Source of the DNA: an uncultured Alphaproteobacteria bacterium
GTDB lineage: Bacteria > Pseudomonadota > Alphaproteobacteria > ATCC43930 > CGMCC-115725
Length of the DNA: 64,000 bases
Reading direction: 5' to 3'
Assembly (NCBI GenBank): GCA_963787425.1
Contig: CAWBCV010000022.1
Location: 39,370 to 103,369, forward strand
The notes beneath the pieces were generated by a model. It ran no database searches, was not told the DNA's origin, and saw only the letters and a list, made by a program, of their open reading frames with translations. Shown here one piece after another: positions 4,135 to 53,917 of this stretch. The position numbers were made by a program, and so were the translations under genes. The stretch's first letter is position 1; every line of letters begins with the position of its first letter.

Positions 4135-4214
4135 AGACCGCCCACGGGTCCGCGCTTCGCGCGGCCAGGCTCTGCGGTCGTCTCGAAGGACGCACCCCGT
4201 CGCCCAGCGATCGG

Positions 4215-5180
4215 TCAACTGGGCTCGTCTTCCGCCAGCACTTCGGCGAATAGGGCGCGGTCGATGTTGCCGCCGGATTGGATGACGGCGACCCGCTTGC
4301 CGGCGAGGCGGCCGCGCTCCTGCAATGCCGCGGCGAGGGCCGCGGCGCCGGCGCCCTCGGCGGTGTTGTGCGTGTCGCTGAACAGGATGCGCATCGCACG
4401 GCGCATCCCCGCTTCGGAGACGGCGACAATCCGCGCAGCGCCGCGGCGGATGACGTCGAGCGCCTCCGGGTTCGGCACCCGCACGGCGAGCCCGCCGGCC
4501 ATCGTGTCGGCTGAGTTGGTGCTGACCGGTGCACCAGCGGCGAAGGACAGCGCGTAGGTCGGGGCATTGGCGGCGACGACCCCGACGATCTCGGTGCGAA
4601 GCCCCAGCGCATCACGCGCCGCGATCACCCCCGAGATGCCGCTGCCGAGCCCAATGGGGACATAGACCACATCGAGATCGGGAACCGCGCGGAACAGTTC
4701 GAGCGCGTAGCTGGCGACACCGCGCACCAGCAGCGGATCATAGGAGTGGACGAAATGCCGGTTTTCGCACTCGGCCATTTCGGTCGCGTGCTCGAACGCG
4801 GCCTGGAAATCGTGCCCGGCCTCGACGAGCCGCGCACCGAAGCCTGCCATCGCCCGGTTCTTCTCGATGCTGTTGCCGTGGGGCACGACGATCGTCGCAT
4901 CGAGTCCCAATCGCGCGGCGGCGAGCGCGATGCTCTGACCGTGATTACCCGTGGTCGCGGTCACGACCCCCCGAATATCCGGCTGCGACCGCCTGACCGC
5001 GTCGAGGTAGACGAGGCCGCCGCGGATCTTGAAGGAGCCGATCGGCGTGTGGTTCTCGTGCTTGACCCATAATTCGGCGCCGAGCCGCCTGGACAGCAAT
5101 GGCCAGCAATATTGCGGGGTCGGCGGCACCATCCGATGAACGAGCGAGGCGGCGGCCTCCAAGCTGTCGAGGTCGATCAC
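4215..5180 (-). CDS. PLP-dependent threonine/serine dehydratase (short IlvA/TdcB-like form)
   Basis: VIDLDSLEAAASLVHRMVPPTP...HENHTPIGSFKIRGG...TATTGNHGQSIA. GTG start at 5180 overlaps the TGA of the upstream gene (GTGA). The 508-aa track ORF is an artefactual N-terminal extension. Confidence 0.85.
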   Translation of the reverse strand: MIDLDSLEAAASLVHRMVPPTPQYCWPLLSRRLGAELWVKHENHTPIGSFKIRGGLVYLDAVRRSQPDIRGVVTATTGNHGQSIALAAARLGLDATIVVPHGNSIEKNRAMAGFGARLVEAGHDFQAAFEHATEMAECENRHFVHSYDPLLVRGVASYALELFRAVPDLDVVYVPIGLGSGISGVIAARDALGLRTEIVGVVAANAPTYALSFAAGAPVSTNSADTMAGGLAVRVPNPEALDVIRRGAARIVAVSEAGMRRAMRILFSDTHNTAEGAGAAALAAALQERGRLAGKRVAVIQSGGNIDRALFAEVLAEDEPS

Positions 5181-6604
5181 CGCTTCTTCGCCTCGGACCC
5201 GGTGCTCTCGGCAGGTCCGCCGGCGTGCTCGGCGGGCGGGCCCTTGTAGGAGATCCGCCAGATCGTGCCGCCGGTGTCGTCGGCGACGAGCAAGGAGCCG
5301 TCCTTGGCCACCGCGAGCGCCGCGGGGCGGCCCCAGACCTCGGCGCGCTCTTCGCCGGAAGCCCAGAAGCCGGTCGCGAAATTCTCGTAATAGCCTTCCG
5401 GCCGACCGTCCTTGAACGGCACCCGGACGACCTTGTATCCGGTCGGCACCGAGCGGTTCCACGAGCCCTTCAGCGCGACGAACAAGCTGCCCTTGTATTC
5501 TGACGGAAACTGATCGGCCTCGTAAAACACGAGGTCGAGCAGTGAGGAATGGGCCTGGAATAAGAGATCGGGCGTGATCGTCGCTTCGACTTTGTCGGGC
5601 GCGAGTTGCGCAAATCCCGGTTGCGGGTGCTTGCCGATATAGGCGTAAGGCCAGCCGTAGAACCCACCCTGCTGCACGCGGATCAGATAATCTGAGGGCA
5701 GATTGTCGCCGAGCCCGTCGCGCTCCTGCACCACGGCCCACAACTCGCCGGTCTGCGGTTGAAAGGCAAGCGCTGTCGGGTTGCGCGTGCCCGAGGCAAC
5801 GGTCGTCTGGTTGGAGCCGTCGGGATCGAAGCGCTGGATCGTCGCCTTGGGCTCGGGCTCGACACCGAGATTGCCCGACGATCCGACACCGACATAGAGC
5901 CCGCCGGTCTTCGGATCGATCGCCAGATGCCGGTTCTGGTGGCCGACCGGAATACCGAAGACGCCTTTCTTCGTCAGCAACTCCGCGCCATAGGCGCCCG
6001 GCACCGGCTTGCGCTGGTCGGGCGGCACGTCCTCAGCCTTCTGCGGCGGCACTGGGCGGCCCGCGCGCAGTGCGCCGACGACGTGCGGCACGCGCCAGAT
6101 GGCGTCCTGGTCGGCGATGAGGATCTCGTCGCCCCGCAGCGCGAGGCCGTAGGGCCGGTTGAGGTCCTCGACATGCCGGTCGATCCACTTGGCGCGGCCC
6201 TCGCCGTCGTCGCGCAGCAAGGTGAGGTATCCAGCGCTCTGCTCAGCGACCAATACGTCGCCATTGGGCAGCACCAGGAGGCGCCGCGGATTGACGAGGC
6301 CGGTCGCGAATGGCGTCGCGACGAACCCCGGGGGCACCTCCAGCGCTTGCCCGTTATAAGGCACGACCAAGGAACGGTTGGTGACGATCGCACCGGTCTT
6401 AGGCGCCGGCAAGTCATTGGGGTCGATGTGGAAGCGTCGTCCGATCTCGTGCTCGGCCTGGAAATTCTGCGCCAGCTCTTCCTTCGTAACAGAGCCTTGT
6501 CCCGGCGCCGGCGACTGTTGCTGTGCGGAGGCCGACGACAGCGCCAAGACGGCTGCAGCGCTTGCCGCCAGGGCAATCAATGAGATGCCGGATTTCATTG
6601 CCAT
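5177..6604 (-). CDS. secreted PQQ-dependent sugar dehydrogenase (sorbosone dehydrogenase family beta-propeller)
   Basis: Signal peptide MAMKSGISLIALAASAAAVLALSSASAQ, plus GFYGWPYAYIG and other motifs of soluble glucose/sorbosone dehydrogenases. The ATG at 6604 is preceded by GGAGAGGG. Confidence 0.8.
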   Translation of the reverse strand: MAMKSGISLIALAASAAAVLALSSASAQQQSPAPGQGSVTKEELAQNFQAEHEIGRRFHIDPNDLPAPKTGAIVTNRSLVVPYNGQALEVPPGFVATPFATGLVNPRRLLVLPNGDVLVAEQSAGYLTLLRDDGEGRAKWIDRHVEDLNRPYGLALRGDEILIADQDAIWRVPHVVGALRAGRPVPPQKAEDVPPDQRKPVPGAYGAELLTKKGVFGIPVGHQNRHLAIDPKTGGLYVGVGSSGNLGVEPEPKATIQRFDPDGSNQTTVASGTRNPTALAFQPQTGELWAVVQERDGLGDNLPSDYLIRVQQGGFYGWPYAYIGKHPQPGFAQLAPDKVEATITPDLLFQAHSSLLDLVFYEADQFPSEYKGSLFVALKGSWNRSVPTGYKVVRVPFKDGRPEGYYENFATGFWASGEERAEVWGRPAALAVAKDGSLLVADDTGGTIWRISYKGPPAEHAGGPAESTGSEAKKR

Positions 6605-6771
6605 GTCCCTCTCCAACAGAGTTCCGGGCAGAACTCCTAACGTACCAGCAATCGAGCCGCTGGCGAAGTTCCGACGGGCCGACTACTCAAACCTGACGGC
6701 GGCCGCCCTCAAAACCGCGAGGGCCGACCTTTTCCTTGGTGTACAGACATAGAACCGCGGTCGCTGATATC

Positions 6772-20972: not shown

Positions 20973-22919
20973 ATGAAATTCGATGACGGGATTTTTGGAC
21001 TCTATTCACGGTTGTACGAAAACCGGAGAGATGTCGAGCTCTCCCTCGAGGAGTATCTCGGCAAGTGCTCCGATAATTCGTCATATTATGCGGGCGCCGC
21101 CGAGCGCATGCTGAGCGCTATCGGCGAGCCGGTGATGGTCGACACGAGCCAAGATTCGCGTCTCGGCCGGATTTTCATGAACCGCACGATCAAGGTCTAC
21201 CCGGAATTCGCGGATTTCTTCGGGATGGAGGAGACGATCGAGCGCATCGTCGGCTTCTTCCGTCATGCCGCGCAGGGCCTGGAGGAACGTAAGCAAATTC
21301 TCTATCTGCTAGGCCCGGTCGGCGGCGGCAAATCCTCGCTGGCCGAACGCCTGAAGCAGCTGATGGAGAAAGAGCCGGTCTATGTCTTGAAGGCCGGCAA
21401 GGAAGTCAGTCCGGTTTTTGAGAGCCCGCTCGGTTTGTTCGATCCGGTGACCCTCGGCGAGGAACTTGAAAAGCGTTACAACGTCCCGCGGCGGCGGCTG
21501 ACCGGCACCATTTCGCCGTGGGCGGTCAAGCGGCTCGAAGAATTCGGCGGCGACATCACCAAATTCACGGTGGTTCGCATGCAGCCTTCGCGGCTGAAGC
21601 AAATCTGCATCTCCAAGACCGAGCCCGGCGATGAGAACAACCAGGACGTGTCGAGCCTTGTCGGCAAGGTCGACATTCGCAAGCTCGAATTCTTCAGCCA
21701 GAACGACCCGGACGCCTATTCCTATTCTGGCGGTCTTAACCGGACGACCCAAGGGCTTCTCGAATTTGTCGAGATGTTCAAGGCGCCGATCAAGATGCTG
21801 CATCCGCTATTGACCTCGACGCAGGAAGGCAATTACGTCGGTTCCGAAAATATCGGCGGGATCCCCTATCAGGGGATCGTATTGGCGCACTCGAACGAAG
21901 CCGAATGGCAGAGCTTCAAAAACAACAAGAACAATGAGGCGTTCATCGACCGCATCTCGGTGATCAAGGTCCCGTACTGCTTGCGCGCCACCGAGGAACG
22001 CAAGATCTACGAAAAATTATTGCAGAACAGTGAGCTCTCCAGTTCGCCATGTGCGCCGTCGACCTTGGATATACTCGCACGCTTCAGCGTGCTGTCGCGG
22101 CTGAAATCGCACGAGAATTCGAACCTCTATTCGAAAATGCGGGTCTATGACGGCGAGAGCTTGAAGGACACTGATCCGCGCGCCAAGTCTGTCCAGGAAT
22201 ATCGCGATGCGGCCGGGGTTGACGAGGGAATGGACGGCATTTCCACCCGTTTCGCCTTCAAGGTGTTGTCCAGCACCTTTAACTTCGACACGCAGGAGGT
22301 GGCCGCCGATCCCGTCCATCTGATGTACGTGCTGGAGCAGGCGATCTGGCGTGAGCAATTCCCTGACGACGCCGAAAAGAAATACCTTAACTTCATCAAG
22401 GCCGAGCTGGCGCCGCGCTATGCCGAGTTCATCGGCCATGAGATCCAGAAGGCTTATCTGGAATCCTACTCCGACTACGGTCAGAACCTGTTCGACCGGT
22501 ATGTCGCCTACGCCGATGCTTGGATCGAGGATTCCGACTACAAGGATCCCGACACCGGTCAGCTGATGAATCGCGAGCTGTTGAACCAAGAGCTGTCAAA
22601 GATTGAAAAGCCGGCCGGGATCGCAAACCCCAAGGATTTCCGTAACGAGGTCGTCAAATTCGCGTTGCGCGCGCGGGCCAATAATGCCGGGCGCAACCCG
22701 TCATGGACCTCGTACGAGAAACTGCGCGAGGTCATCGAGCGGCGCATGTTCTCACAAGTCGAGGATCTGTTGCCGGTAATCAGCTTTGGGACCAAGAAGG
22801 ATACCGACACGGAGAAGAAGCACGCCGATTTCCTCGAACGCATGGTCTCCCGGGGTTACACTGAGCGGCAGGTCCGACGGCTAGTCGAGTGGTATATGCG
22901 GGTGAACAAGGCAGGGTAA
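20973..22919 (+). CDS. prkA: PrkA family serine protein kinase
   Basis: 648 aa, LLGPVGGGKSSLAERLK P-loop. Collinear with the YeaG/PrkA family and followed by yeaH and spoVR-type genes. Confidence 0.95.
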   Translation: MKFDDGIFGLYSRLYENRRDVELSLEEYLGKCSDNSSYYAGAAERMLSAIGEPVMVDTSQDSRLGRIFMNRTIKVYPEFADFFGMEETIERIVGFFRHAAQGLEERKQILYLLGPVGGGKSSLAERLKQLMEKEPVYVLKAGKEVSPVFESPLGLFDPVTLGEELEKRYNVPRRRLTGTISPWAVKRLEEFGGDITKFTVVRMQPSRLKQICISKTEPGDENNQDVSSLVGKVDIRKLEFFSQNDPDAYSYSGGLNRTTQGLLEFVEMFKAPIKMLHPLLTSTQEGNYVGSENIGGIPYQGIVLAHSNEAEWQSFKNNKNNEAFIDRISVIKVPYCLRATEERKIYEKLLQNSELSSSPCAPSTLDILARFSVLSRLKSHENSNLYSKMRVYDGESLKDTDPRAKSVQEYRDAAGVDEGMDGISTRFAFKVLSSTFNFDTQEVAADPVHLMYVLEQAIWREQFPDDAEKKYLNFIKAELAPRYAEFIGHEIQKAYLESYSDYGQNLFDRYVAYADAWIEDSDYKDPDTGQLMNRELLNQELSKIEKPAGIANPKDFRNEVVKFALRARANNAGRNPSWTSYEKLREVIERRMFSQVEDLLPVISFGTKKDTDTEKKHADFLERMVSRGYTERQVRRLVEWYMRVNKAG

Positions 22920-22951
22920 GCGATCGCAGTTTTCTGGAAGGGAAGACTAGT

Positions 22952-23053
22952 ATGAGCGACGTCAACCGCCGTCCCAGCCCCAAGGGCAAGAGCCGTGGCA
23001 CAAAACCGAATCGGAGGAGATGGATCGATCAGCGCGGGAGCCTCATGGCATGA
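22952..23053 (+). other. 33-codon ORF that duplicates the 5' end of yeaH (relic start)
   Basis: MSDVNRRPSPKGKS... compared with the yeaH start MNIVDRRPNPKGKS.... At the nucleotide level, gtcaaccgccgtcccagccccaagggcaagagcc compares with gtcgaccgccgtcccaacccgaagggcaagagcc. It starts 33 nt after the prkA stop behind GGAAGGGAAG. Confidence 0.5.
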
Positions 23054-23222
23054 TCAGCATTTCCATGTTCATAGGCTCGCCCGGTCCTGGACCTAGTCCA
23101 GGCAATGACCCGTCGCCGACGCACCAGTGTATTGATGCGGTTGGCTCCTTAGATAGCTAAGTGAGTTCTGGGCTGAGCCTCGCCGGATTAATCGGGTGGG
23201 GCTTTGCCCTGGAGATACACAG

Positions 23223-24512
23223 ATGAATATCGTCGACCGCCGTCCCAACCCGAAGGGCAAGAGCCTCAGCAATCGACAGCGTTTTCTGGCGCGCGCCCGG
23301 GCGGAAGTGAAATCGGCGGTGCAGGAGGCATTGCGCAAACGCAAGGTGGCTGATGTCGGCCACGGCGAAAAGGTGGCGATTCCGACCCGTGGGATTGCCG
23401 AGCCGAATTTTCATCACAGCCGCCGCACCGGGCGAACCGAACATGTCGTCCCCGGCAACAAGGAGTATATCAGAGGCGACGAAATTCCGCGGCCGACCGG
23501 CGGGGAAGGGCGTGGGGGCTCGCAGGGGAGCCCCGACGGGTCGGGCGAGGACGCGTTTGAATTCACGCTTTCGAAGGAAGAGTTCCTCGACATGTTTTTC
23601 GAGGACCTCGAACTCCCCGATCTCGTCAAAAAGAGCCTTAAGGAGACGTTTGCAGTCGATCTGCAGCGTGCCGGGTACACAGTTAGCGGCAGTCCCGCCA
23701 ACCTCAGCATCCGCCGGACGATGCGGAACAGCATGGCGCGCCGGATATCGCTGAAACGGCCGAAACAATCGGATCTGGAGGCGTTGCGCGAGGCGATCGA
23801 TAATGCGCGCTCTCGCGGTGCTGACGAAGAGGCCGAGAGGCTTCTGCGCGAACTCGACCGCCTTGAGCACCGCAGTAAGATCATTCCTTACATCGACCCA
23901 ATCGACGTTCGTTATAACCGCTTTGAGCGGGTTCCCCGCCCGAATACCGAAGCGGTGATGTTCTGCCTGATGGACGTGTCGGGATCGATGACCGAGGCGA
24001 TGAAGGACCTAGCGAAGAGGTTCTTCATGCTCCTGCATGTTTTCCTGATCCGGCGCTATCGGCAGGTCGATATCGTCTTCATTCGCCACACAAGCACCGC
24101 CGAAGAGGTCGACGAAGAGACCTTCTTCTACAGCCGGGAGACCGGCGGTACCGTAGTCTCGACCGCCCTCGAAAAAATGCTGGAGATTGCGCGGGCGCGA
24201 TATCCCACCGACCGGTGGAACATTTACGCGGCTCAGGCGTCCGACGGCGACAATTACGGCGCGGACAGTGGACGTTGCGTATCCTTGTTGGGTGGCGAGG
24301 TTCTTCCGCTCTGTCAATATTTCGCCTACGTCGAAGTCGGTGACGGCATGGGAGGAAGCCTGACCGGATTGTCGCGAGACAGCGACCTGTGGAGAGCCTA
24401 CAACGAGGTAGCGCCGGTCCATCCTCATTTCGTGATGCGCCGGGTCAGCGACCCGTCGCAGATCTTCTCGGTGTTCCACGAATTATTCGCAAAGGGGGGT
24501 ATCCGTGCCTGA
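23223..24512 (+). CDS. yeaH: YeaH/YhbH family protein (DUF444, vWA-like)
   Basis: MNIVDRRPNPKGKSLSNRQRFLARA...FCLMDVSGSM (MIDAS-like). Conserved position between prkA and spoVR. Confidence 0.9.
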   Translation: MNIVDRRPNPKGKSLSNRQRFLARARAEVKSAVQEALRKRKVADVGHGEKVAIPTRGIAEPNFHHSRRTGRTEHVVPGNKEYIRGDEIPRPTGGEGRGGSQGSPDGSGEDAFEFTLSKEEFLDMFFEDLELPDLVKKSLKETFAVDLQRAGYTVSGSPANLSIRRTMRNSMARRISLKRPKQSDLEALREAIDNARSRGADEEAERLLRELDRLEHRSKIIPYIDPIDVRYNRFERVPRPNTEAVMFCLMDVSGSMTEAMKDLAKRFFMLLHVFLIRRYRQVDIVFIRHTSTAEEVDEETFFYSRETGGTVVSTALEKMLEIARARYPTDRWNIYAAQASDGDNYGADSGRCVSLLGGEVLPLCQYFAYVEVGDGMGGSLTGLSRDSDLWRAYNEVAPVHPHFVMRRVSDPSQIFSVFHELFAKGGIRA

Positions 24513-26067
24513 CTCCGTCGCGCTGCGGCTCGAAACCGCCGCCCCGATCTTCACTGGCCCAAATTGGGATTATACGGGGTTGCGCCGGGTCTATGACGCA
24601 GTCGAGCGGATTGCGCTCGACGAGCTCGGGCTCGACGTCTATCCCGTCCAGATCGAGGTGATCACCTCCGAGCAGATGCTCGACGCTTACGCCTCGGTCG
24701 GCTTGCCGCTGATGTATCGCCATTGGAGCTTCGGCAAACGTTTCGCGTACCACGAGACCCTCTACCGAAAGGGATTGCAAGGCCTCGCCTACGAAATCGT
24801 CATCAACTCCAACCCGTGTATCTGCTACATCATGGAAGAAAATTCCATGACCATGCAGACATTAGTCATTGCTCACGCCGCGTTCGGCCATAATCACTTC
24901 TTTAAGAACAATTACCTGTTTCGGCAGTGGACCGACGCCAATGGCATTCTCGATTATCTGAGCTTCGCCCGCGACTACGTGCAGAAATGCGAAGAGCGGC
25001 ACGGGGCGGAGGCGGTGGAGCGCGTGCTGGACGCCGCGCATGCGCTTAAGGATCACGGTGTGAACCGTTACGCCCACCGCACCAAGCCGAATCTCGCCGA
25101 GGAGCGGCGCCGAGCTGAGGAGTGGCGTGCGCATTTCGAGGCGACATACAACGATCTATGGCGCACCGTGCCTGGTGCCGGAAAAGACAAGGAGGACGGC
25201 GGCGACGAGGAGGCGCGGCTCCAGGAAATCAAGCGCGAGCTCGGGCTTCCTGAAGAGAACCTGCTGTATCTGATTGAAAAACGAGCCCCGCGGCTCGAAG
25301 ATTGGCAACGCGAGCTCGTGCGCATCGTCCGCTTGGTCTCTCAGTATTTCTATCCGCAGAAGCAGACGCAGATGATGAACGAGGGGTGCGCGACCTTCGT
25401 GCATTACGAGATTATGCGGCGGCTTCACGACAAGGGGCTGATTACCGAAGGATCGATGCTCGAGTTTCTGCACTCGCATTCGAGCGTCGTATTTCAGCCG
25501 GACTTCGATGACCCGCGGTTCAGCGGCCTCAACCCCTATGCGCTGGGGTTCGCGATGATGAGCGATATCCGGCGCATCTGCGAAGAGCCGACCGGGGAGG
25601 ACCGGGAGTGGTTTCCCGACATAGCCGGCTCGGGAGACGGCTTTGGCGTCTTACGTCACGCCTGGGCGAACTACCGCGACGAAAGTTTCGTCCTGCAACA
25701 TCTCAGCCCGGCGATGATCCGGCGGTTTCGGCTTTTCCATGTCTCCGACGACAGCACAAAGCCGGCGTTGCGCGTCGAGGCGATCCACGACGATGTCGGC
25801 TATCGGAAAGTTCGCAGCGCTCTCTCCCGGCAATATGATCTGTCCCGGCGCGAGCCCGACATTCAGGTGGTCGATGTCGATCTCAGAGGTGATCGCTGCC
25901 TCATTCTTGCGCATTATGTGCATAACGGCGTGCTGCTCGAAGAACAGAGCTGCCGGGCCGTGATCCGGCATACGGCAACGTTGTGGGGCTATTCGGTCAA
26001 GCTGCTCGAGATCGACGCCGCCACCGACAAAACCCTGAAAACCTATGAGGTAGCACCCCCCAGCTGA
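24505..26067 (+). CDS. SpoVR family protein (YcgB-like)
   Basis: 520 aa with [46 protein letters not shown]. 8-nt overlap with yeaH. Confidence 0.9.
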
Positions 26068-32335: not shown

Positions 32336-32971
32336 GTGCGCATGCTCCATCAGATCCGGATCGCGTTCCCGCTCGCCGTACTGTCGCTGATCGCGGCACC
32401 GGCATCCGCGGAGACGCTCGGTGATGCTCGCGTCGGGTTCAGCGCGGAGCGGGTGCTGGTCATCGATGGGCAAAGCTACGTGGGCCGGATGTGGCATATG
32501 CCTGGCGAACAGCGCCATGAGCAGGACCTACCGGCCTTAAGGCCGATCTTCATCCTGCGTTCCGCCAGCGCGATCGGCGACATCATCCTGCCGAAGCTGC
32601 ATACCGTCGTCGAATTCGCGCTTCCAAAAGAGCTGTCGATTCTGGCCGACCCCGGCCTGTTGCGCAAACCTATGGGGCAGGAAACCGTCAACGGCATTGC
32701 GACGACGAAATACGACTTGGACGAGGAGAAGCCACAGGGCCGTGCGGTCGGCTCGCTGTGGCTCAGCGAGGAAGGCATCCCGATGAAGTGTGATGCCAGG
32801 CTCACAACCGGCAAAGGCAAGGTTTCGACGATTCGCTGGGAACTGCGCCACGTCAAGATCGGCACGCAAGACGCCGCGTTGTTCGAGATACCGCGCGATT
32901 ACGCAAAGCTGCCCCCGGAGGCGGCTGCCCCGTTGCTCGGTATGCGTCTGGCGCGACCCCCCGCTCGATAA
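32336..32971 (+). CDS. hypothetical periplasmic protein
   Basis: Signal peptide (IRIAFPLAVLSLIAAPASA). No domain recognised. Start is GTG 32336 or ATG 32342. Confidence 0.55.
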   Translation: MRMLHQIRIAFPLAVLSLIAAPASAETLGDARVGFSAERVLVIDGQSYVGRMWHMPGEQRHEQDLPALRPIFILRSASAIGDIILPKLHTVVEFALPKELSILADPGLLRKPMGQETVNGIATTKYDLDEEKPQGRAVGSLWLSEEGIPMKCDARLTTGKGKVSTIRWELRHVKIGTQDAALFEIPRDYAKLPPEAAAPLLGMRLARPPAR

Positions 32972-32978
32972 GTTCTGA

Positions 32979-35066
32979 CTATTCGACGATGACCTGACCG
33001 TACATCCACGGGTGCGGCGTGCAGATGTAGAAATAGGTGCCGGGTTCCTTGAAGGTGATCTCCTTGGATTCGCCCTTGTTCAGAGCACCCGTGTCCCAAT
33101 CGCCGACCTTGCCCTTGTTGAACGCCGTGGCCGTGTGCGGAATGTCGCCGACGTTGGTGAACGTCAAAGTGGTTCCCGCCTTCACCCGAGTGCGGGCCGG
33201 CCAATAGGCGTACTCGACGTTATTGTCGCCGATTTTGACCTTATCCACGCCGTCGGCAACTGCTCCTCCCGGCCCGGCGACGATAGCCGGAGGTGGTGGC
33301 GGCCATAACGGCCCGAGCTGCCCCTTGAGCGAGAAGGCCCATACGGCATCGCCATAGGCACTCCCTTGGATCGAATTGCCGCCGGTGACAATCGCGATGT
33401 ACTGGTCGCCGTCGACTTCATAGACCATCGCGGGGGCGTCGGCGCCAAAGCCGGTCTGGAATTTCCACAGCACCTCCCCGGTCTTGGCGTCGAGCGCGGC
33501 GAAGTTGCCGTCGGGCTCGCCACGTAAGAGGAGGCCTCCGCCAGTCACGGTCGAGCCGCCTCCGCCACCCATGCGGTAAGGCATCTGGTGTTGCCAGGCG
33601 ATCTTGTTTGTCCTGCTGTCGATCGCGGTAAAAGTGCCGCTCAAAGGCGAACCGATCGGCGGCGCCTGGGTGCCGTTCGTATACCGCCGCCCGGTGGTGT
33701 ACTCGCTGGGAACGCGCGAGAACACGCTCGTGCGGATCGTTCCCGGCACGTAGAGATAACCCGTATCGGGATCGTAGGGCATGGGCGACCAATTCGTACC
33801 GCCTTGCCCCGACGGCTGAATGAGAACCGGTTCTTCCCAGAAGGCCTCGAAAATACACCCGGCCTTCTCGTATCCCTCCATCGGCTGCGCGCATTGCGGC
33901 ACCGTCGCGTCGCCGATCGGGTAGGGCTGCGTTTTGGCCGTTTTCTGGCGCGGCTCCTGCGGCACCGGACGCTCCTCGATGCCGATCAGCGGTTTGCCGT
34001 TGGTGCGGTCGAGGATGTAGACCCAGCCGGTGCGTCCGGCTTCGGCTATCGCCTTGCGTGGTTGACCGTCGATCACCGTGTCGAACAATACGACCGGGCT
34101 CGCCGCGTCGTAGTCCCAGATGTCGTGATGCACCTCCTGGAAATGCCAGACGTGTTCGCCGGTCTTGGCGTTCAGCGCGACTATGGAGGCGCAGAACAGA
34201 TTGTCGCCCTCGCGCATCGACCCGTCATAATCGGGCCCGCAATTGCCTGTCGCGAAGTAGATGAGCCCGAGCTGCGGATCGAGGGCAGGCGTGTTCCATA
34301 CAGATGCGCCGCCCCGCATTGCGTGGTCGGTGCCGGCCGGCCAAGTGTCGCTGCCGACCTCGCCCGGGCCGGGAAGGGTAAACCAGCGCCACAGGATCTT
34401 TCCGGTCTTGGCGTCGAGCGCCGTCAGCCGGCTGCGCACCCCGAATTCCCCTCCGGTGTTACCGCTGTAAACGATGCCGTCGTAATAGAGCGGCGCGCTG
34501 GTGACGCCATAGCCGTTACGCCAGTCCTCGATCGGCGTCTTCCACACTTCCTTGCCGGTCTTGATGTCGAGCGCTAGGACATTGGCATCGAGCTGGCCGA
34601 GAAACAGCATGTCCTCGCCCATCGCCAAGCCGCGGTTCAGCCAGCCGCAGCACACCGTCGAGATCTTCTGGTCGATCCCCGACCAACGCTCCCACAAGAA
34701 CTCACCGGTCTTCGCATTGAGCGCGAACACATCGTCGTTTCCCGTGACGACATACATGATCCCGTCTTTGACGAGCGGCGTCGCCTCGGCCGAGTACTTC
34801 CCGCCAAACCCGGAACTTTTGAGGCGGGCCATCCAGGCTCCTTTGAGCTGCTTGACGTTGCTGGTTTCGATCTGCTTCAGCGTGGAGTACCGCTGATTGG
34901 TCATATTGCCGCCGCTGGTGACCCAGTCCTTGCCGACCGGGCTCTGCAGCAAGTGATCGATTTCCGGATCGGCAGCGCGAACCTGCGTTGCCCCCGAAAA
35001 CACCAAACCGCCCGCCAGCATTCCCGCCAGGATTAGTCGGAGTATTCGTTGCACTCGACGTCGCAT
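32979..35066 (-). CDS. PQQ-dependent dehydrogenase (methanol/ethanol family) fused to a C-terminal amicyanin-like cupredoxin domain, paralogue 1
   Basis: Signal peptide, vicinal Cys139-Cys140 (TVCCGWLNRG), GGEFGVRSRL, GDNLFCASIVALNAKTGEHVWHFQEVHHDIWDYD. Pro-rich linker LWPPPPPAIVAGPGG. C-terminal domain with H644 (DIPHTATAF) and C682-T-P-H685-P-W-M688. Confidence 0.9.
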   Translation of the reverse strand: MRRRVQRILRLILAGMLAGGLVFSGATQVRAADPEIDHLLQSPVGKDWVTSGGNMTNQRYSTLKQIETSNVKQLKGAWMARLKSSGFGGKYSAEATPLVKDGIMYVVTGNDDVFALNAKTGEFLWERWSGIDQKISTVCCGWLNRGLAMGEDMLFLGQLDANVLALDIKTGKEVWKTPIEDWRNGYGVTSAPLYYDGIVYSGNTGGEFGVRSRLTALDAKTGKILWRWFTLPGPGEVGSDTWPAGTDHAMRGGASVWNTPALDPQLGLIYFATGNCGPDYDGSMREGDNLFCASIVALNAKTGEHVWHFQEVHHDIWDYDAASPVVLFDTVIDGQPRKAIAEAGRTGWVYILDRTNGKPLIGIEERPVPQEPRQKTAKTQPYPIGDATVPQCAQPMEGYEKAGCIFEAFWEEPVLIQPSGQGGTNWSPMPYDPDTGYLYVPGTIRTSVFSRVPSEYTTGRRYTNGTQAPPIGSPLSGTFTAIDSRTNKIAWQHQMPYRMGGGGGSTVTGGGLLLRGEPDGNFAALDAKTGEVLWKFQTGFGADAPAMVYEVDGDQYIAIVTGGNSIQGSAYGDAVWAFSLKGQLGPLWPPPPPAIVAGPGGAVADGVDKVKIGDNNVEYAYWPARTRVKAGTTLTFTNVGDIPHTATAFNKGKVGDWDTGALNKGESKEITFKEPGTYFYICTPHPWMYGQVIVE

Positions 35067-35087: not shown

Positions 35088-37154
35088 TTATTCAACGATT
35101 ATCTGTCCGTACATCCAGGGGTGCGGTGTACAGATGTAGTAGTAGGTGCCGGGCTCAGAGAAGGTGATGGCCTTCAACTCCCCCTTCTCCAATGGGCCAG
35201 TGTCCCATTTGCCCTTTTCGAACGCGGTTGCCGTGTGCTGGACATCACCGACATTGGTGAAGGTCACCGTCGTCCCCGCCTTGACCCGAGTGCGGCCCGG
35301 CCAATAGGCGTATTCGACGTTGTTGTCGCCGATCTTGATCAAGTCGACCCCGTCCGCGACCGGCCCTGTGGGTCCGGCGATGCTCTGTGGGACGGGAGGC
35401 GGCCACAGCGGACCCAATTGCCCCTTCAGCGAGAACACCCACACCGCATCGCCGTTTGCACTGAGCATCCCCTGATTGCCGCCGGTCGCGATGGCGACAT
35501 ACTCGTCTCCGTCTACCTCGTAGACCGCCGGAGGAGCATCGGCCCCGAAACCGGTTTGGAACCGCCATAACTCTTCGCCCGACTTGGCGTTAATCGCCAG
35601 GAAATTGCCGTCAGGCTCGCCGCGGAAGACGAGGCCGCCGGCCGTCGTTGTCGACCCGCCCCCCTGACCGACGCGATATGGCGTCTTGTTCTGCCAGACG
35701 ATCTTGTTGGTGTTGCCGCCCATTGCGGTAAAGGTACCGCTCATCGCCGACCCGATCGGCGCCGCCTGGGTGCCGCCGGTATAGCGCTGCCCGAGCTTGT
35801 AGGTATCGCCGTAACGAGCAAACGCGCTGGTTCGGACCGTGCCGGAAACGAAGAAGCTGCCGGTTTCCGGATTGTAGGACATCGGCGCCCAGTTGGTGCC
35901 GCCGATCCCGGAGGGCTGGATCAGCACCGGCTCTTCCCAGAACGCCTCGAAGATGCAGCCAGCCTTTTCGTAGCCGCTCGCAGGCATCGGCTCGGCACAT
36001 TGCGGCACGATCGCGTCGCCGAGCGGGAAGGGCTGCGTCTTTGCCGTCTTTTGCTTCGGCTCCTGCGGCACCGCGCGCTCCTCGACACCGATCAGCGGTT
36101 TGCCGTTGGTGCGGTCGAGGATGTAGACCCAGCCGGTTCGTCCGGCCTGGGCGATGCCCTTGCGCGGCTGGCCATTGATCACCGTGTCGAAGAGGACGAC
36201 CGGGCTCGCCAAGTCATAATCCCAGATGTCGTGGTGAACCTCCTGAAAATGCCAAGCATACTTGCCGGTCTTGGCGTTCACCGCGAGGACCGAGGCGCAG
36301 AACAAATTATCGCCTTCGCGCATCGATCCATCGTAATCCGGGCCGCAATTGCCGACGGCGAAGTAGACGAGGCCGAGCTCCGGGTCGAGAGCCGGGGTGT
36401 TCCAGATCGACGCCCCGCCGCGCATCGCGTGATCGGTGCCGGAGGGCCAAGTGTCGCTGCCGACCTCGCCCGGCGCCGGCAAAGTGTAGGCCCGCCACAG
36501 GATCTTGCCGGTCTTGGCATCGAGCGCGGTCAGACGCCCGCGTATGCCGAATTCACCGCCGGTGATGCCGCTATAGACAATTCCGTCGTAATAGAGCGGC
36601 GCATTGGTGATTCCGTAACCATTGTGCCAGTCCTCGACCGGGGTCCTCCACACCTCCTTGCCGGTCTTGATGTCGAGCGCGACGACATTTGCGTCCATCT
36701 GGCCGATGAACAGCATCCCTTCGCCCATCGCCAGCCCACGGTTGAGCCAGCCACAGCAGACGGTCGAGATCGTCTGGCCGATGCCGGACCAGTGCTCCCA
36801 AAGGATCTGGCCGGTCTTGGCATCGAGCGCGAAGACATCGTCGTTCCCGGTGCTAATATACATGATGCCGTCTTTGACGAGCGGCGTCGCCTCGAACGAA
36901 TACTTGCCGCCGAGCCCGGAGCCCTTGAGGCGGGTCATCCAGGCTCCTTTGAGCTGTTTGACGTTGCTGGCGTCGATCTGCTTCAGCGTGGAGTACCGCT
37001 CGTTCGTCAGATTTCCGCCGTTCGTCACCCAGTCCTTTCCGACCGGGCTCTGCACCAATTTGTCGATTTCGGGATCGGCTGCCCAAACCGCGCCCGCTCC
37101 CGCGACGAGCACGCCGAGAGCTCCCGATAGGACGATTCGCAGTCCGCACCGCAT
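35088..37154 (-). CDS. PQQ-dependent dehydrogenase fused to an amicyanin-like cupredoxin domain, paralogue 2
   Basis: Collinear with paralogue 1 and identical by eye at most aligned positions. Same CC pair, WDYD (D312, D314), linker LWPPPVPQSIAGPTG, and DVQHTATAF...CTPHPWM. Separated from paralogue 1 by 21 nt that contain GGGAGA. Confidence 0.9.
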   Translation of the reverse strand: MRCGLRIVLSGALGVLVAGAGAVWAADPEIDKLVQSPVGKDWVTNGGNLTNERYSTLKQIDASNVKQLKGAWMTRLKGSGLGGKYSFEATPLVKDGIMYISTGNDDVFALDAKTGQILWEHWSGIGQTISTVCCGWLNRGLAMGEGMLFIGQMDANVVALDIKTGKEVWRTPVEDWHNGYGITNAPLYYDGIVYSGITGGEFGIRGRLTALDAKTGKILWRAYTLPAPGEVGSDTWPSGTDHAMRGGASIWNTPALDPELGLVYFAVGNCGPDYDGSMREGDNLFCASVLAVNAKTGKYAWHFQEVHHDIWDYDLASPVVLFDTVINGQPRKGIAQAGRTGWVYILDRTNGKPLIGVEERAVPQEPKQKTAKTQPFPLGDAIVPQCAEPMPASGYEKAGCIFEAFWEEPVLIQPSGIGGTNWAPMSYNPETGSFFVSGTVRTSAFARYGDTYKLGQRYTGGTQAAPIGSAMSGTFTAMGGNTNKIVWQNKTPYRVGQGGGSTTTAGGLVFRGEPDGNFLAINAKSGEELWRFQTGFGADAPPAVYEVDGDEYVAIATGGNQGMLSANGDAVWVFSLKGQLGPLWPPPVPQSIAGPTGPVADGVDLIKIGDNNVEYAYWPGRTRVKAGTTVTFTNVGDVQHTATAFEKGKWDTGPLEKGELKAITFSEPGTYYYICTPHPWMYGQIIVE

Positions 37155-41855: not shown

Positions 41856-42257
41856 TCAGCCTCTCCTGAAATCCTCGAGCGAGAGCCCAAGGGCAGAGGC
41901 CCCCTCTTCGAGGTAGTCGGGGAGGAGCGGCGTGCCGACCAGATAACTGGTGACATTCGCAATGTTTGTTTCCGCGGCTTCGCGCAACGCCTCCGGCCAG
42001 CTGCCCGCGTCATAGTCGCCGCGGCCGAGCCACATCAGCGCGAGCAACTCCTGACGCTCGGGCGGGCCGAGCCCGTCGATGGCGTCGCGCAGCTCCTCCT
42101 CGGTCGGATTGTCCGGCGTGTCGAGCAGGACCTGCCGCTCATCATCGTCGGGCGGGTCCGAGCCGGTCACCGCATCCGGCTCGACCGGCACCTCGGCATC
42201 GAACTCGCGCGCCTTGGCGATGATAAAGGCAAGTGTTTCGGGCGGAATGACCAGCAT
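41856..42257 (-). CDS. DUF3775 domain protein
   Basis: ETLAFIIAKAREFDAEV...ELRDAIDGLGPPERQELLALMWLGRGDY. Confidence 0.7.
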   Translation of the reverse strand: MLVIPPETLAFIIAKAREFDAEVPVEPDAVTGSDPPDDDERQVLLDTPDNPTEEELRDAIDGLGPPERQELLALMWLGRGDYDAGSWPEALREAAETNIANVTSYLVGTPLLPDYLEEGASALGLSLEDFRRG

Positions 42258-43000
42258 TAGGGTTTCTCTTTGATGCTTCGAAGTTGAACACTAAACGCCG
42301 GCTCGGGCCAGCGCCACTGCTTGACCTCCGGCATATCGTCACCATAGCGGGTGATGTACTGCTTGTGCTCGATCAGCTTGTCGCGCATCTCTTGCTTGGC
42401 GTAAGCGGCGAGGTAACCGAGCGTCGGCACGCGGTCGATCACATTGTTGACGAGATGGAAGCGGTCGAGATCGTTACGCACGACCATGTCGAAGGGCGTG
42501 GTCATCGTCCCTTCCTCCTTGTAGCCGAGAACATGAATGTTGCGATGGTTGGTACGCCGGTATGTCAATCGGTGGATGAGCCAGGGATAGCCGTGATGGG
42601 CAAAGATCACCGGTTTGTCGGTCGTGAACAACGCGTCGAAATCGTGGTCGGTAATACGCTCCTCGTATGGCTGCAGGGTCATCAGATCGACGACATTGAC
42701 GACTCGGATCTTGAGGTTGGGGATGTGGCGGCGCAGCAGATCGACCGCCGCCGAGGTCTCCATAGTCGGAACATCGCCGGTGCAAGCCATCACGACATCG
42801 GGCTCACCGCCGCGGTCGTTGCTCGCCCATTCCCAAATGCCGATCCCGGCATCGCAGTACTTGATCGCGGCGTCGATGTCGAGCCATTGCGGCGCAGGCT
42901 GCGTGCCGGCGACGATCACATTGATGCGGTCCCAGCTGCGCAGGCAATGATCGGTGACCCACAGCTGCCGGACATCCCCAGCCTCCCCCTGCGCTCGCAA
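42257..43000 (-). pseudogene. phosphoketolase (Xfp) C-terminal remnant, about 240 of about 790 aa
   Basis: [48 protein letters not shown]...[45 protein letters not shown]. Only the C-terminal third of the family is present, and similarity starts about 10 codons after the ORF Met. Confidence 0.85.
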
Positions 43001-50590: not shown

Positions 50591-53500
50591 ATGAATGTAG
50601 CCGAATGGCTGCGCGGGCTCGGGCTCGAGCAATACGTACCCGCGTTCCGCGCCAACGACATTGACGAGGAGGTATTACGCCGGCTCACGGGCGAGGATCT
50701 GCGCGAGCTGGGTGTCATCTCGATCGGCCATCGTCGCAGACTGCTCGACGGCATCGCAGCGCTCAGCACGGCCGAAGCGCCGGCGACGCCGCCACCGGTC
50801 CCCATCGCCGCGAGCGAAGCTGAGCGCCGCCAGCTGACGGTGATGTTTTGCGACCTCGTCGGCTCGACGGCGCTGTCGGTACGCTTCGACCCCGAGGATC
50901 TGCGCGAGATCATCGGGGCCTATCACCGCTGCGTCGCCGACACCGTCGGCCGGTTCGCCGGGTTTGTCGCCAAATACATGGGCGACGGGGTGCTGATCTA
51001 TTTCGGCTATCCCGAGGCGCACGAGGACGATGCCGAGCGAGCTGTCCGGGCCGGGCTCGCAGTCATTGACGCGATCAATGGGCTATCGGCGTCGGAACGG
51101 CTGAATGTGCGCCTCGGGGTCGCCAGCGGCCTCGTTGTGGTCGGTGATCTGATCGGCGCGGGCGCGGCGCAGGAGCGCGGGGTGGTCGGCGAAACTCCAA
51201 ACCTCGCTGCCCGGCTGCAGACGCTGGCCCAACCGGGCACGCTCGTGATTGCCGAGAGCACGCGACGGCAAATCGGCGCGCTGTTCGAGATAGAGGACCT
51301 CGGGCCGCAAAGGCTCGCCGGTTTTGCCGATCTGCAGCATGCCTGGCGCGTCGCCGGCGAAAGCGGGATCGTCAGCCGTTTCGAGGCATTACGCTCGGAC
51401 GCGACGCCGCTCGTCGGGCGCGATGAAGAACTCGAACTCCTGCTGCGGCGCTGGCATCAAACGAAAGCCGGCGAGGGGCGGGTGGTACTGATTTCGGGCG
51501 AGCCGGGAATCGGCAAATCGCGCCTGACCGCAGAGCTGTCGCAGCGCATCGGGAGCGATCCGCACACGCGGCTGCGCTATTTCTGCTCGCCCTACCACCA
51601 GGACAGCGCGCTCCACCCGTTCATCGTTCAGCTTGAACGCGCCGCCGGTTTTGCCCGCGACGACACGCGCGAAAAAAAGCTCGGCAAGCTGAAGGAACTG
51701 CTGGCGCCCGCAACGCCTGGAGAAGACGAGATTGCTCTGATGGCCGAGCTGCTGTCGTTGCCGAGTTCCGCCGCCAACCTAAACTTCAGCCCGCAACGCA
51801 AGCGCGAAAGATTGTTCGAAGCGCTGCTGCGTCAGCTCGCAGCCCTGGCCCGCGACCGGCCTGTTTTGATGATATTCGAAGATGCGCATTGGATCGACCC
51901 GACCTCGCGCGAGTTGCTCGACCTGACTTTCGACCGGGTCGCGCAGATGCCGATCCTGCTTCTCGTCACCTTCCGGTCCGAATTTCAACACCCCTGGGGA
52001 GGCCAGCCGCATGCGTCGGTGCTGGCGCTGAACCGGCTCGGAGGAATTGAAGGCGCGGCTCTCGTTGAACGGGTCTCCGGTAATGCTGGTCTCGCCCGCG
52101 AAACGGTCGACGAGATCGTCAAACGCGCAGATGGTGTGCCGCTGTTTGTCGAGGAGCTGACCAAAGCCGTACTCGAAAGCAGGGCGCGCGACGACCGGGT
52201 GGCTGCGGTGCTGGCGGCAGGCCCATCGCCGGCCCTCGCCATTCCCGCGACCTTGCACGCCTCGCTTATCGCACGTCTCGATCGGCTGGGGCCCATCGCC
52301 AAGGAGGTCGCGCAAATTGGCGCCGTGATCAGCCGCGAGTTCTCCTACGAGCTGGTCCAGCCGGTGGCGCAGCGGCCGGCGCCGGAATTGCAAATAGCCC
52401 TCGGCCGCCTGACCGATGCCGGGCTTCTGTTCTGCCGCGGCGAGCCACCGCATTCCTCGTATCTCTTCAAGCATGCGCTGGTGCAGGACGCGGCCTACGG
52501 CACGTTGCTGCGGGCCAGACGGCAGGAATTGCACGCCCGCATCGCCGACGTTCTTGAAGACCAGTTCCCGGAGATTGTCGACAACCAGCCGGAGATCTTA
52601 GCGCGCCATTTCACGCAAGCGGGCCAGGTCGATCCGGGAATCGAGTTCTGGCGCCGCGCCGGTATGCGCAGCATCGCCCAATCCGCCCATTCCGAGGCGG
52701 CCGCTCACCTTGAGAGCGCGCTCGATCTGCTTGGAAAGCGGGCCCCGTGCGAAGAGCGTGACGAGCGCGAGCTCGAACTCACTCTATCGCTCGCCGTGCC
52801 TCTGATTGCCGTCCACGGCTTTGGATCGTTACGTGTGGAGGAGTGCGCACAGAGGGCTAAGGAGCTTTCGGACAAGCTCCGCCACTCGTCCCGCCGGTTC
52901 GCGGCCCAGCGGGTCGCGTGGAATTCATGCTTGATGCGCCAGCCGGTTCCGAAGACCGTCACATTGGCCCGCGAACTCGTCGAATTGGCGGAGGGGGATG
53001 AGGATCCGGCAAAAATTGCCGTGGCACAGCGCGCGTTGGGGTATTCGTTGTTCGTCGCAGGCGAATTTCGAGAGGCCGTCGAACGCCTCGAGAGGGGAAT
53101 AACGCTGGCGGACACTCTTTCGGATCGCGAATTCGCGGTCTATGGCGAACACCCCGGCATGGTCTGCCGAGTTTATGCGGGGCAGGCGAAGATCCTGATG
53201 GGGTTTCCGGAAACCGGGGCGAGGCTCATCGACGCTGCAATAACGCATGCACGTCACGAACAGAATGCACACAGCCTTGCTTGGGCGCTGGCTGTGGCTG
53301 CGCACAGTCTCGTGACGCAGCATGAGGCGCAGGCCACGCTCCGCTTTGCATCGGAGGCGATCGACACCGCGCGAGAGCACCGCTTGCCCCAGTGGCTCGC
53401 TCTCGGCGAGCGATGCAAAGGCTGGGCGATCCACCGGGTCGGCGATTTTTCGGCGGGGCTCGACTTGCAGAAAAAGGGTGTGAACCGCTGGTACGAGACC

Positions 53501-53917
53501 GGAGCGGCGCTCCATAACACGCATTGCGAGATCATTCTCGCGGAGAGCCTCCTGCGGGAGGGCCGGACCGCATCGGCCAGCGCCCACTTGGATCGGGCAC
53601 GGGCCCACCGCGCGGGTTACGGCGAAGATTATGTCGCCGCGGAAATCGACCGGCTGGAAGCCCTGCTGCTGCAATCCGAACAGGCTCCCACCGAGATCGT
53701 CGAAGAGTGTCTGGTCAACTCCTTGATCACAGCCCGCCGACAAGGAGCCCGCCTGCTTGAACTCCGCGCCGCCAGAACATTGGCGCGAATTCTGGCCGAA
53801 AAAGGCAAACGCCGCAGGGCTGGCGATCTGCTCGCCCCCGTTTATGGCTGGTTCACCGAGGGCTTCGACACCGCCGATCTGATGGAGGCGAAGGCGCTGC
53901 TCGATGAGCTGAGCTGA
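50591..53917 (+). CDS. SAM domain / class III adenylate-guanylate cyclase / P-loop STAND ATPase / TPR multidomain protein
   Basis: The N-terminal sterile-alpha-motif-like region is WLRGLGLEQYVPAFRANDIDEEVLRRLTGEDLRELGV. The cyclase region is RRQLTVMFCDLVGST...KYMGDGVLIYFGYP...GETPNLAARL. The P-loop is SGEPGIGKSRL. The C-terminus is a long helical repeat region. Confidence 0.9.
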   Translation: MNVAEWLRGLGLEQYVPAFRANDIDEEVLRRLTGEDLRELGVISIGHRRRLLDGIAALSTAEAPATPPPVPIAASEAERRQLTVMFCDLVGSTALSVRFDPEDLREIIGAYHRCVADTVGRFAGFVAKYMGDGVLIYFGYPEAHEDDAERAVRAGLAVIDAINGLSASERLNVRLGVASGLVVVGDLIGAGAAQERGVVGETPNLAARLQTLAQPGTLVIAESTRRQIGALFEIEDLGPQRLAGFADLQHAWRVAGESGIVSRFEALRSDATPLVGRDEELELLLRRWHQTKAGEGRVVLISGEPGIGKSRLTAELSQRIGSDPHTRLRYFCSPYHQDSALHPFIVQLERAAGFARDDTREKKLGKLKELLAPATPGEDEIALMAELLSLPSSAANLNFSPQRKRERLFEALLRQLAALARDRPVLMIFEDAHWIDPTSRELLDLTFDRVAQMPILLLVTFRSEFQHPWGGQPHASVLALNRLGGIEGAALVERVSGNAGLARETVDEIVKRADGVPLFVEELTKAVLESRARDDRVAAVLAAGPSPALAIPATLHASLIARLDRLGPIAKEVAQIGAVISREFSYELVQPVAQRPAPELQIALGRLTDAGLLFCRGEPPHSSYLFKHALVQDAAYGTLLRARRQELHARIADVLEDQFPEIVDNQPEILARHFTQAGQVDPGIEFWRRAGMRSIAQSAHSEAAAHLESALDLLGKRAPCEERDERELELTLSLAVPLIAVHGFGSLRVEECAQRAKELSDKLRHSSRRFAAQRVAWNSCLMRQPVPKTVTLARELVELAEGDEDPAKIAVAQRALGYSLFVAGEFREAVERLERGITLADTLSDREFAVYGEHPGMVCRVYAGQAKILMGFPETGARLIDAAITHARHEQNAHSLAWALAVAAHSLVTQHEAQATLRFASEAIDTAREHRLPQWLALGERCKGWAIHRVGDFSAGLDLQKKGVNRWYETGAALHNTHCEIILAESLLREGRTASASAHLDRARAHRAGYGEDYVAAEIDRLEALLLQSEQAPTEIVEECLVNSLITARRQGARLLELRAARTLARILAEKGKRRRAGDLLAPVYGWFTEGFDTADLMEAKALLDELS

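Follow-up and report, generated by a model that had tools for sequence, protein, structure and literature searches.

Introduction

Which metal ion does a pyrroloquinoline quinone (PQQ)-dependent dehydrogenase hold when its catalytic aspartate is followed, two residues on, by a second aspartate, and where do its electrons go when the protein ends in a copper domain? Two adjacent genes in a 64,000-nucleotide stretch of DNA from an uncultured Alphaproteobacteria bacterium (contig CAWBCV010000022.1, positions 39,370 to 103,369; the window) raise both questions. Each encodes a PQQ β-propeller fused to a type-1 Cu cupredoxin, and each carries the Asp-x-Asp (D-x-D) motif that a sequence-only reading of the window took as a signature of lanthanide (Ln) dependence. 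In XoxF1 and ExaF, function with Ln depends on the Asp at the second position (the +2 Asp; Good et al., bioRxiv 10.1101/2020.02.25.964783). Proof that this residue is needed comes from those two enzymes only, which is a narrow base. Among PQQ dehydrogenases from the ocean, 61% carry D-x-D, as do 14 of 17 families (PMC11996626), and 15 predicted Ln clades have been reported from weathered rock and soil (bioRxiv 10.64898/2026.07.10.737718). Ln dependence of the two paralogues is thus a reasonable prediction, of a kind that the literature already makes at scale, and would not be surprising.

The reading that we prefer is that both proteins are PQQ/Ln/Cu dehydrogenases with an intramolecular electron path from PQQ to Cu, and we give it a probability of roughly 0.5. 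Its parts differ in strength. The architecture and the assignment of PQQ and Cu are very probable, and a lanthanide is slightly favoured as the physiological metal.

Results

Two tandem genes encode PQQ–cupredoxin fusions

The two genes share a strand, with paralogue 2 placed 21 bp upstream of paralogue 1 (Table 1), and are therefore probably expressed as one transcript. The proteins share 79-80% identity, and the exact sequences of both are present in NCBI/ENA. In Pfam searches, PF01011 (PQQ propeller) covers residues ~45-560 of each (both ~1e-100; E=2.4e-100 for paralogue 1), well beyond its cut-off, and PF00127 (Copper-bind) matches both C-termini (E=7.9e-11 for paralogue 1) with scores (42.7 and 33.3 bits) that exceed the cut-off of 21.2. 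The haem-binding motif CxxCH is missing from the full sequence of both proteins. Members of this family are named 'quinohemoprotein ethanol dehydrogenase' or 'alcohol dehydrogenase (cytochrome c)' in IMG (P0001-P0120, P0272-P0299) and 'PQQ-binding-like beta-propeller repeat protein' at NCBI. Because CxxCH is absent and the C-terminal domain is a PF00127 cupredoxin, the IMG names are wrong about the electron-transfer domain. Assignment as a membrane PQQ glucose/quinate dehydrogenase was rejected, with a TIGR03074 score of 229 bits versus 832.65 and an N-terminus that holds only a signal peptide. That signal peptide suggests periplasmic export of both dehydrogenases. The N-terminus MRRRVQ resembles a twin-arginine export signal, but the motif is non-canonical.

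Table 1. Features of the two PQQ–cupredoxin genes (positions in the window)
Feature	Position	Strand	Basis or detail
Paralogue 1 open reading frame	32979..35066	-	695 aa; signal peptide, 8-bladed PQQ β-propeller, Pro-rich linker, C-terminal type-1 Cu cupredoxin
N-terminal signal peptide, paralogue 1	34974..35066	-	MRRRVQRILRLILAGMLAGGLVFSGATQVRA, putative cleavage before AD; read from the sequence
Vicinal C139-C140 (TVCCGW), paralogue 1	34647..34652	-	disulphide ring over PQQ; aligned to CC of 4mae
E207 (GGEFG), predicted metal ligand, paralogue 1	34446..34448	-	aligned to XoxF SolV Glu172 and PedH GGEFGV
N275 (ATGNCG), predicted metal ligand, paralogue 1	34242..34244	-	aligned to XoxF SolV Asn256 (TSN) and PedH TGN
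W317-D318-Y319-D320, paralogue 1 (catalytic-base Asp and +2 Asp)	34107..34118	-	W317 34118-34116, D318 34115-34113, Y319 34112-34110, D320 34109-34107; aligned to XoxF D299/D301 and PedH WDFD
Pro-rich linker, propeller to cupredoxin, paralogue 1	33267..33320	-	…GPLWPPPPPAIVAGPGG…; residues ~583-600; AlphaFold2 (AF2) pLDDT <50 at 583-602
Amicyanin-like cupredoxin domain, paralogue 1	32982..33266	-	residues ~601-695; PF00127, amicyanin alignment
Cu ligands, paralogue 1	H644 33135-33137, C682 33021-33023, H685 33012-33014, M688 33003-33005	-	amicyanin alignment
Paralogue 2 open reading frame	35088..37154	-	688 aa; architecture as paralogue 1
C133-C134, vicinal Cys pair, paralogue 2	36753-36758	-	same alignment columns as C139-C140
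E201, paralogue 2	36552-36554	-	same alignment column as E207
N269, paralogue 2	36348-36350	-	same alignment column as N275
W311-D312-Y313-D314, paralogue 2	36213..36224	-	in HHDIWDYDLASP; D312 36221-36219, D314 36215-36213
Cupredoxin domain, paralogue 2	35091..35366	-	PF00127
Cu ligands, paralogue 2	H640 35235-35237, C675 35130-35132, H678 35121-35123, M681 35112-35114	-	PF00127 match and sequence

The metal site has the ligand set of Ln enzymes

On the minus strand, the segment 34060..34180 contains CAT CAC GAC ATC TGG GAC TAC GAC GCG GCG AGC CCG, which encodes HHDIWDYDAASP, and the residues and coordinates that the sequence-only reading gave for the motif are exact in both paralogues (HHDIWDYDAASP and HHDIWDYDLASP). 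In phmmer searches of the Protein Data Bank (PDB), the motif sits in a 72-residue gapless, high-confidence alignment to solved PQQ dehydrogenases. Because of this alignment, and because the motif is invariant in 122 close homologues, it is not a chance match. For a multiple alignment, PDB sequences rebuilt from the printed phmmer alignments were combined with both paralogues and ~100 representatives. Ligands were compared across six references, three with Ln (4mae and 6dam, XoxF; 6zcw, PedH) and three with Ca (1kv9, 1yiq and 1kb0); the Ca-annotated structures 4cvb, 7wmd, 9m2c and 4mh1 lie outside this comparison.

Residues E207, N275, D318 and D320 of paralogue 1, and E201, N269, D312 and D314 of paralogue 2, occupy the columns of E172, N256, D299 and D301 in 4mae, and the same four ligand residues are found in 6dam and 6zcw. 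We take the ligands of XoxF SolV from M. fumariolicum to be Glu172, Asn256, Asp299 and Asp301, a numbering that is reproduced by residue count in the 4mae chain. At the +2 column PedH has Asp (WDFD), and the Ca enzymes ADH IIB (WDFT), ADH IIG (WDYT) and qhEDH (WDYT) have Thr. The sequence-only reading had supposed that the +2 Asp matches the Asp that coordinates Ln in known enzymes and that Ca enzymes have another residue there. It does align with that Asp in PedH (6zcw) and XoxF (4mae Asp301, 6dam), and all three Ca references differ as expected. The same reading placed the Glu ligand correctly, in GGEFG (E207 on XoxF Glu172), and the Asn ligand wrongly, in VWNTP. The column of N258, the VWNTP residue next to the conserved Trp257, holds Gly, Leu or Asp in the references, and the ligand is instead N275 in ATGNCG. 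Among these six references only, the residue preceding the Glu also divides with the metal, being Gly in both paralogues (GGEFGV) and the three Ln enzymes and Ala in the three Ca enzymes (GAE[YF]GV). The PQQ-contact residues E94, R145, W257 and R345 are kept relative to the references in the multiple alignment.

The site is strongly conserved. All four ligands and the vicinal Cys pair (CC) are unchanged in the 122 homologues of at least 78% identity, with one exception at Glu207, and 46 of 48 loci of at least 71% identity keep the CC pair, GGE[FYL]G, GN[CG]G (GNCG in all but one) and HHD[IL]WD[YF]DA. The two exceptions, the Rokubacteria loci L033 and L044 (71-73% identity), carry Asn where the catalytic Asp is expected (HHD[IL]WNYDAS) and retain the +2 Asp; judging by this substitution, these copies may be inactive or differently acting paralogues.

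The C-terminal domain has a full set of type-1 Cu ligands

The last 95 residues of paralogue 1 match amicyanin end to end (E=1.5e-13), with PH…CTPHPWM lying on PH…CTPHPFM. The His, Cys, His and Met ligands of a type-1 Cu cupredoxin are all present in the PH…C-x2-H-x2-M arrangement, and the four are invariant in family alignments A1 and A2. From these residues the copper domain looks functional. Both paralogues score below the NCBIfam amicyanin equivalog cut-off (53.7 versus 110.2). The proposal in the sequence-only reading that these quinoproteins are wired to copper is supported, since H644, C682, H685 and M688 fall on the amicyanin ligands and do not vary in the family. In five Rokubacteria loci (L010, L011, L027, L034 and L043) the Cu site reads CLPHPWQ, a stellacyanin-like change of the axial Met to Gln that would shift the redox potential of the fused cupredoxin. 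We found no paper describing a PQQ–cupredoxin fusion in the open-access literature searched.

A proposed electron path

From the sequences we infer the following scheme. Both genes would encode secreted periplasmic quinoprotein dehydrogenases in which an eight-bladed propeller holds PQQ beneath the Cys139-Cys140 disulphide. A Lewis-acid metal ion would be bound by Glu207, Asn275, Asp318, which would also serve as catalytic base, and Asp320. The most likely identity of this ion is a light lanthanide (Ln3+) and not Ca2+, because the protein ligand set is exactly that of XoxF and PedH/ExaF. The substrate, probably an alcohol or aldehyde, would be oxidized at PQQ C5. The resulting PQQH2 would then be re-oxidized in two one-electron steps by the tethered type-1 Cu (His644, Cys682, His685, Met688), which would hand the electrons to a separate acceptor in the periplasm. 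The cupredoxin would thus stand in for the fused cytochrome c domain of type II quinohemoprotein alcohol dehydrogenases (ADHs). We suggest, with less confidence than for the scheme itself, that these are the first known 'quinocuproproteins', with PQQ, a lanthanide and type-1 Cu in one polypeptide and blue copper replacing a XoxG/PedF-type cytochrome as the first acceptor.

Homologues are widespread in soil bacteria

Soil metagenomes contain more than 120 clusters at 78% identity or above, and a genome scan gave 79 loci with homologues. The carriers are mostly uncultured Alphaproteobacteria (Stellaceae, Acetobacteraceae and Xanthobacteraceae), Rokubacteria, Thermomicrobiales and Dormibacterota; one cultured carrier, Bradyrhizobium sp. 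dw_411 (L026, 73% identity), is among the loci, and L002 holds a 95% orthologue. PQQ–cupredoxin proteins are abundant in uncultured soil Alphaproteobacteria (including Bradyrhizobium), Rokubacteria and Chloroflexi. Distant full-length fusions of ~35-37% identity occur on Streptomyces, Nonomuraea and Variovorax replicons. Six loci from Neobacillus, Bacillus, Oceanobacillus and Robertmurraya (L070-L072, L074, L075 and L077; ~53% identity) have the CC pair, GGEYG and HHDIWD[LY]D without a cupredoxin, and Gram-positive Bacillaceae are an unusual host for a PQQ-type dehydrogenase.

The D-x-D motif is a weak guide to the metal

To place the motif in its family, a HMMER scan of 1.84 billion cluster representatives (50% identity) was used to collect the 150 nearest clusters, 140 of which span the motif. 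The motif also occurs in neighbouring subfamilies in which the Glu, the CC pair or the Cu ligands have been lost. In a neighbour-joining distance tree, built with few references and no bootstrap, both paralogues fall in a separate clade marked by HHDxWDxD, and all solved Ln and Ca references sit in the other clade, marked by P-x-D-x-WDxD. Ca-type D-x-T enzymes are nested among D-x-D sequences, which form the majority state across the tree, and because of this nesting D-x-D is common and probably ancestral in this part of the family. Two elements of the sequence-only reading do not survive here. As a distinguishing signature D-x-D fails, being near-universal in the neighbourhood as well as the majority state in the tree, and the phylogenetic check it proposed places the paralogues outside both the XoxF1-5 and the ExaF/PedH clades.

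These observations lend weight to an alternative in which the architecture and electron path are as we propose and the site either takes Ca2+ as its physiological metal or is promiscuous, the +2 Asp being an ancestral residue of an HHDxWDxD or mGDH-like branch that is kept for structure or catalysis. We regard this as a serious possibility, if not the one we favour. It would account for a motif that is near-invariant over diverse subfamilies, even those lacking the Glu and the CC pair, and it has a precedent in the E. coli membrane glucose dehydrogenase (mGDH, Gcd), which has HHDLWDMD at the same position and is reported to be active with Ca, Mg, Zn or Sr (PMC11996626). Gcd is an imperfect control, however, with Asp-Asn and Thr at the Glu and Asn ligand positions. 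XoxF1 likewise binds Ca2+ if it is produced without La, but the Ca-loaded enzyme has little or no activity (both bioRxiv 10.1101/2020.02.25.964783). Against the alternative, among the methanol/ethanol-like references compared the Glu/Asn/Asp/Asp set occurs only in Ln-dependent enzymes and all Ca enzymes carry D-x-T, and pedA1A2BC-type genes adjoin the dehydrogenase genes of relatives.

Besides the behaviour of Gcd, several findings weigh against Ln dependence of the paralogues. The +2 residue is Asp in 135 of the 140 nearest cluster representatives that span the motif, and the +2 Asp of the paralogues is inherited and no specific adaptation. Identity to every solved enzyme is only 32-38%, and we know of no characterised member of the HHDxWDxD clade. 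The nearest NCBIfam model, TIGR03075 (PQQ-dependent dehydrogenase, methanol/ethanol family), gives 451.1 and 448.6 bits, so that both paralogues fall short of its cut-off of 480.05. An AF2 model of paralogue 1, built on a 48-sequence alignment of close homologues, had a mean pLDDT of 56.9 with all metal-site segments below 50; it was too poor for site geometry and was discarded. The annotated open reading frames (ORFs) of the window include no pqq, cytochrome c, xoxG/J, TonB receptor or pedA1A2BC/lut genes, and a tblastn search of the window with four Ped-type proteins found nothing; this lack of lanthanide-uptake genes from the window also fits the Ca2+ alternative. Finally, the importer genes found near relatives are mostly in a sister clade with Asp in place of Glu207.

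This sister clade of PQQ–cupredoxin genes (50-55% identity) has GGDR for GGEFG and HHDLWDFDC. In seven of its loci (L049, L053, L055, L057, L061, L064 and L068) pedA1A2BC-type genes lie no more than 10 kb from the fused gene. Their products match TIGR03863 (PedA1), TIGR03866 (YVTN propeller, PedA2), TIGR03864 (PedB) and TIGR03861 (PedC), and three of these four exceed the curated cut-offs. The set is complete in L049, L055 and L057 (for example L055:14602-18934) and partial in the other four, and L055 and L057 encode no PQQ dehydrogenase besides the fusion. Closer to the paralogues, a PedA2/PedB pair is encoded 4 kb from the orthologue in L038 (77% identity), and in five Rokubacteria loci there is a weaker YVTN homologue in the vicinity of the PQQ genes; in L010 it adjoins the fused gene. 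At low La, growth that depends on PedH (Ln) requires PedA1A2BC, homologues of which are present in all known Ln-ADH producers (PMC6839425). The importer neighbours are real but indirect support for a lanthanide, because the same transporter families accompany PQQ-ADH clusters in general. In several sister-clade loci an NMT1-type ABC transporter is encoded immediately downstream of the dehydrogenase.

A last alternative, that these are 'empty' quinoprotein-like propellers or binding proteins that keep an ancestral motif and have no working PQQ/metal dehydrogenase, is very improbable: a sub-threshold match to TIGR04528 'acido-empty-quinoprotein group A' (374 bits versus a cut-off of 650), the lack of pqq genes in the window and the Asn of L033 and L044 speak for it, but the catalytic Asp, metal ligands, vicinal Cys and PQQ contacts are invariant in the 122 homologues (the one Glu207 exception apart) and in 46 of the 48 close loci, and the fused, conserved, redox-competent type-1 Cu site is sensible only with electrons being produced.

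Genomic context

The neighbours of the paralogues in the window (ClpA, FemAB-like, AHSA1, hypotheticals and others) carry no functional clue. In five close orthologues, including the 87% orthologue L003, the fused gene is flanked by xanthine-dehydrogenase-family Mo enzymes (Fer2_2, MoCoBD and a third subunit). This flanking Mo enzyme may be an aldehyde oxidoreductase that completes an alcohol-to-aldehyde-to-acid route. A Rieske protein together with a three-subunit Mo enzyme flanks L003:6952-16436, L008:2440-9301 and L038:1799-9328 (77-87% identity). Further PQQ dehydrogenases of ~600 aa are encoded in 19 of 76 loci.

Convergent to paralogue 1 and ending 8 bp away, the window encodes a secreted hypothetical protein of 211 aa that matches no Pfam family (32336-32971, plus strand), a homologue of which adjoins the dehydrogenase in five loci (for example L005:12033-12668). 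A 479-aa ORF (5177-6616, minus strand) has a weak partial match to PF07995 (glucose/sorbosone dehydrogenase, six-bladed PQQ-type; E=6e-14) and an NHL repeat and is possibly a second quinoprotein of the window.

Elsewhere, a 247-aa ORF (42257-43000, minus strand) contains only a phosphoketolase C-terminal domain (XFP_C, E=3e-89) and may be a piece of a gene, a phosphoketolase disrupted by a frameshift or the product of a mis-called start. A 654-aa ORF (2651-4615, minus strand) has a DUF772 transposase domain. A SpoVR-like gene (24505-26067, plus strand) lies downstream of ORFs at 20973-24512, with which it may form a cluster, at a guess a PrkA/YeaH/SpoVR set. A 1108-aa protein (50591-53917, plus strand) combines SAM, adenylate/guanylate cyclase and AAA_16 domains.

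Discussion

Calling the motif is itself routine inference, and the enzyme belongs to a clade outside curated family thresholds; from its sequence, a PQQ/Ln/Cu enzyme is plausible and of moderate interest. If our reading is correct, proven Ln enzymology would reach past XoxF and ExaF/PedH into a large soil clade, and Ln-PQQ would have a new electron exit through tethered blue copper, joining the needs for a rare earth and for copper in one enzyme. Outside the XoxF/MxaF and ExaF/ExaA pairs D-x-D is a weak discriminator, and metagenome surveys that take it as proof of a lanthanide rest on it. The cultured carrier Bradyrhizobium sp. dw_411 opens the way to experiments.

Comparison with known systems

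A close precedent for the proposed metal site is PedH/ExaF (PDB 6zcw, 6zcv), which is among the best PDB matches of the paralogues (285 bits) and shares with them the eight-bladed PQQ propeller, the vicinal CC pair, the Glu of GGEFGV, the Asn of TGN and WD[FY]D. It differs in its ~34-35% identity and its place in the other major clade (PHDGWDFD in PedH versus HHDIWDYD here). Electron transfer from PedH relies on a separate cytochrome c and not on a fused domain, whereas the paralogues have a fused cupredoxin, and Ln dependence has been demonstrated for PedH and is predicted here from sequence. In XoxF (PDB 4mae, 6dam, 6oc5), Glu172, Asn256, Asp299 and Asp301 correspond one-to-one to E207, N275, D318 and D320. 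The paralogues are unlike XoxF in the fused cupredoxin and in having no xoxG/xoxJ in the window, and membership of XoxF was rejected on their position outside its clade in the neighbour-joining tree and their 32-38% identity. The extended motif HHD[LI]WD[MY]D, with its +2 Asp, is common to E. coli mGDH and the paralogues (VHHDLWDMD versus VHHDIWDYD). Identity is 26%, and mGDH differs in carrying a membrane domain at its N-terminus and in lacking the CC pair, in addition to the Asp-Asn and Thr replacements described above.

In overall design the paralogues match the type II quinohemoprotein ADHs, which are their best PDB sequence matches (ADH IIB 1kv9, 286 bits; ADH IIG 1yiq, 281; qhEDH 1kb0, 264) and in which a single periplasmic chain likewise runs from a PQQ propeller through a linker to a one-electron redox domain at the C-terminus. 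Those enzymes have a cytochrome c domain (CxxCH), a Ca-type D-x-T and GAE, whereas here the redox domain is amicyanin-like, and assignment to them was rejected on the missing CxxCH and the PF00127 domain. Amicyanin, the acceptor of methylamine dehydrogenase, matches the C-terminal domain, which here is fused to the PQQ enzyme. The Cu nitrite reductase 9cck has the same type of C-terminal tethered cupredoxin.

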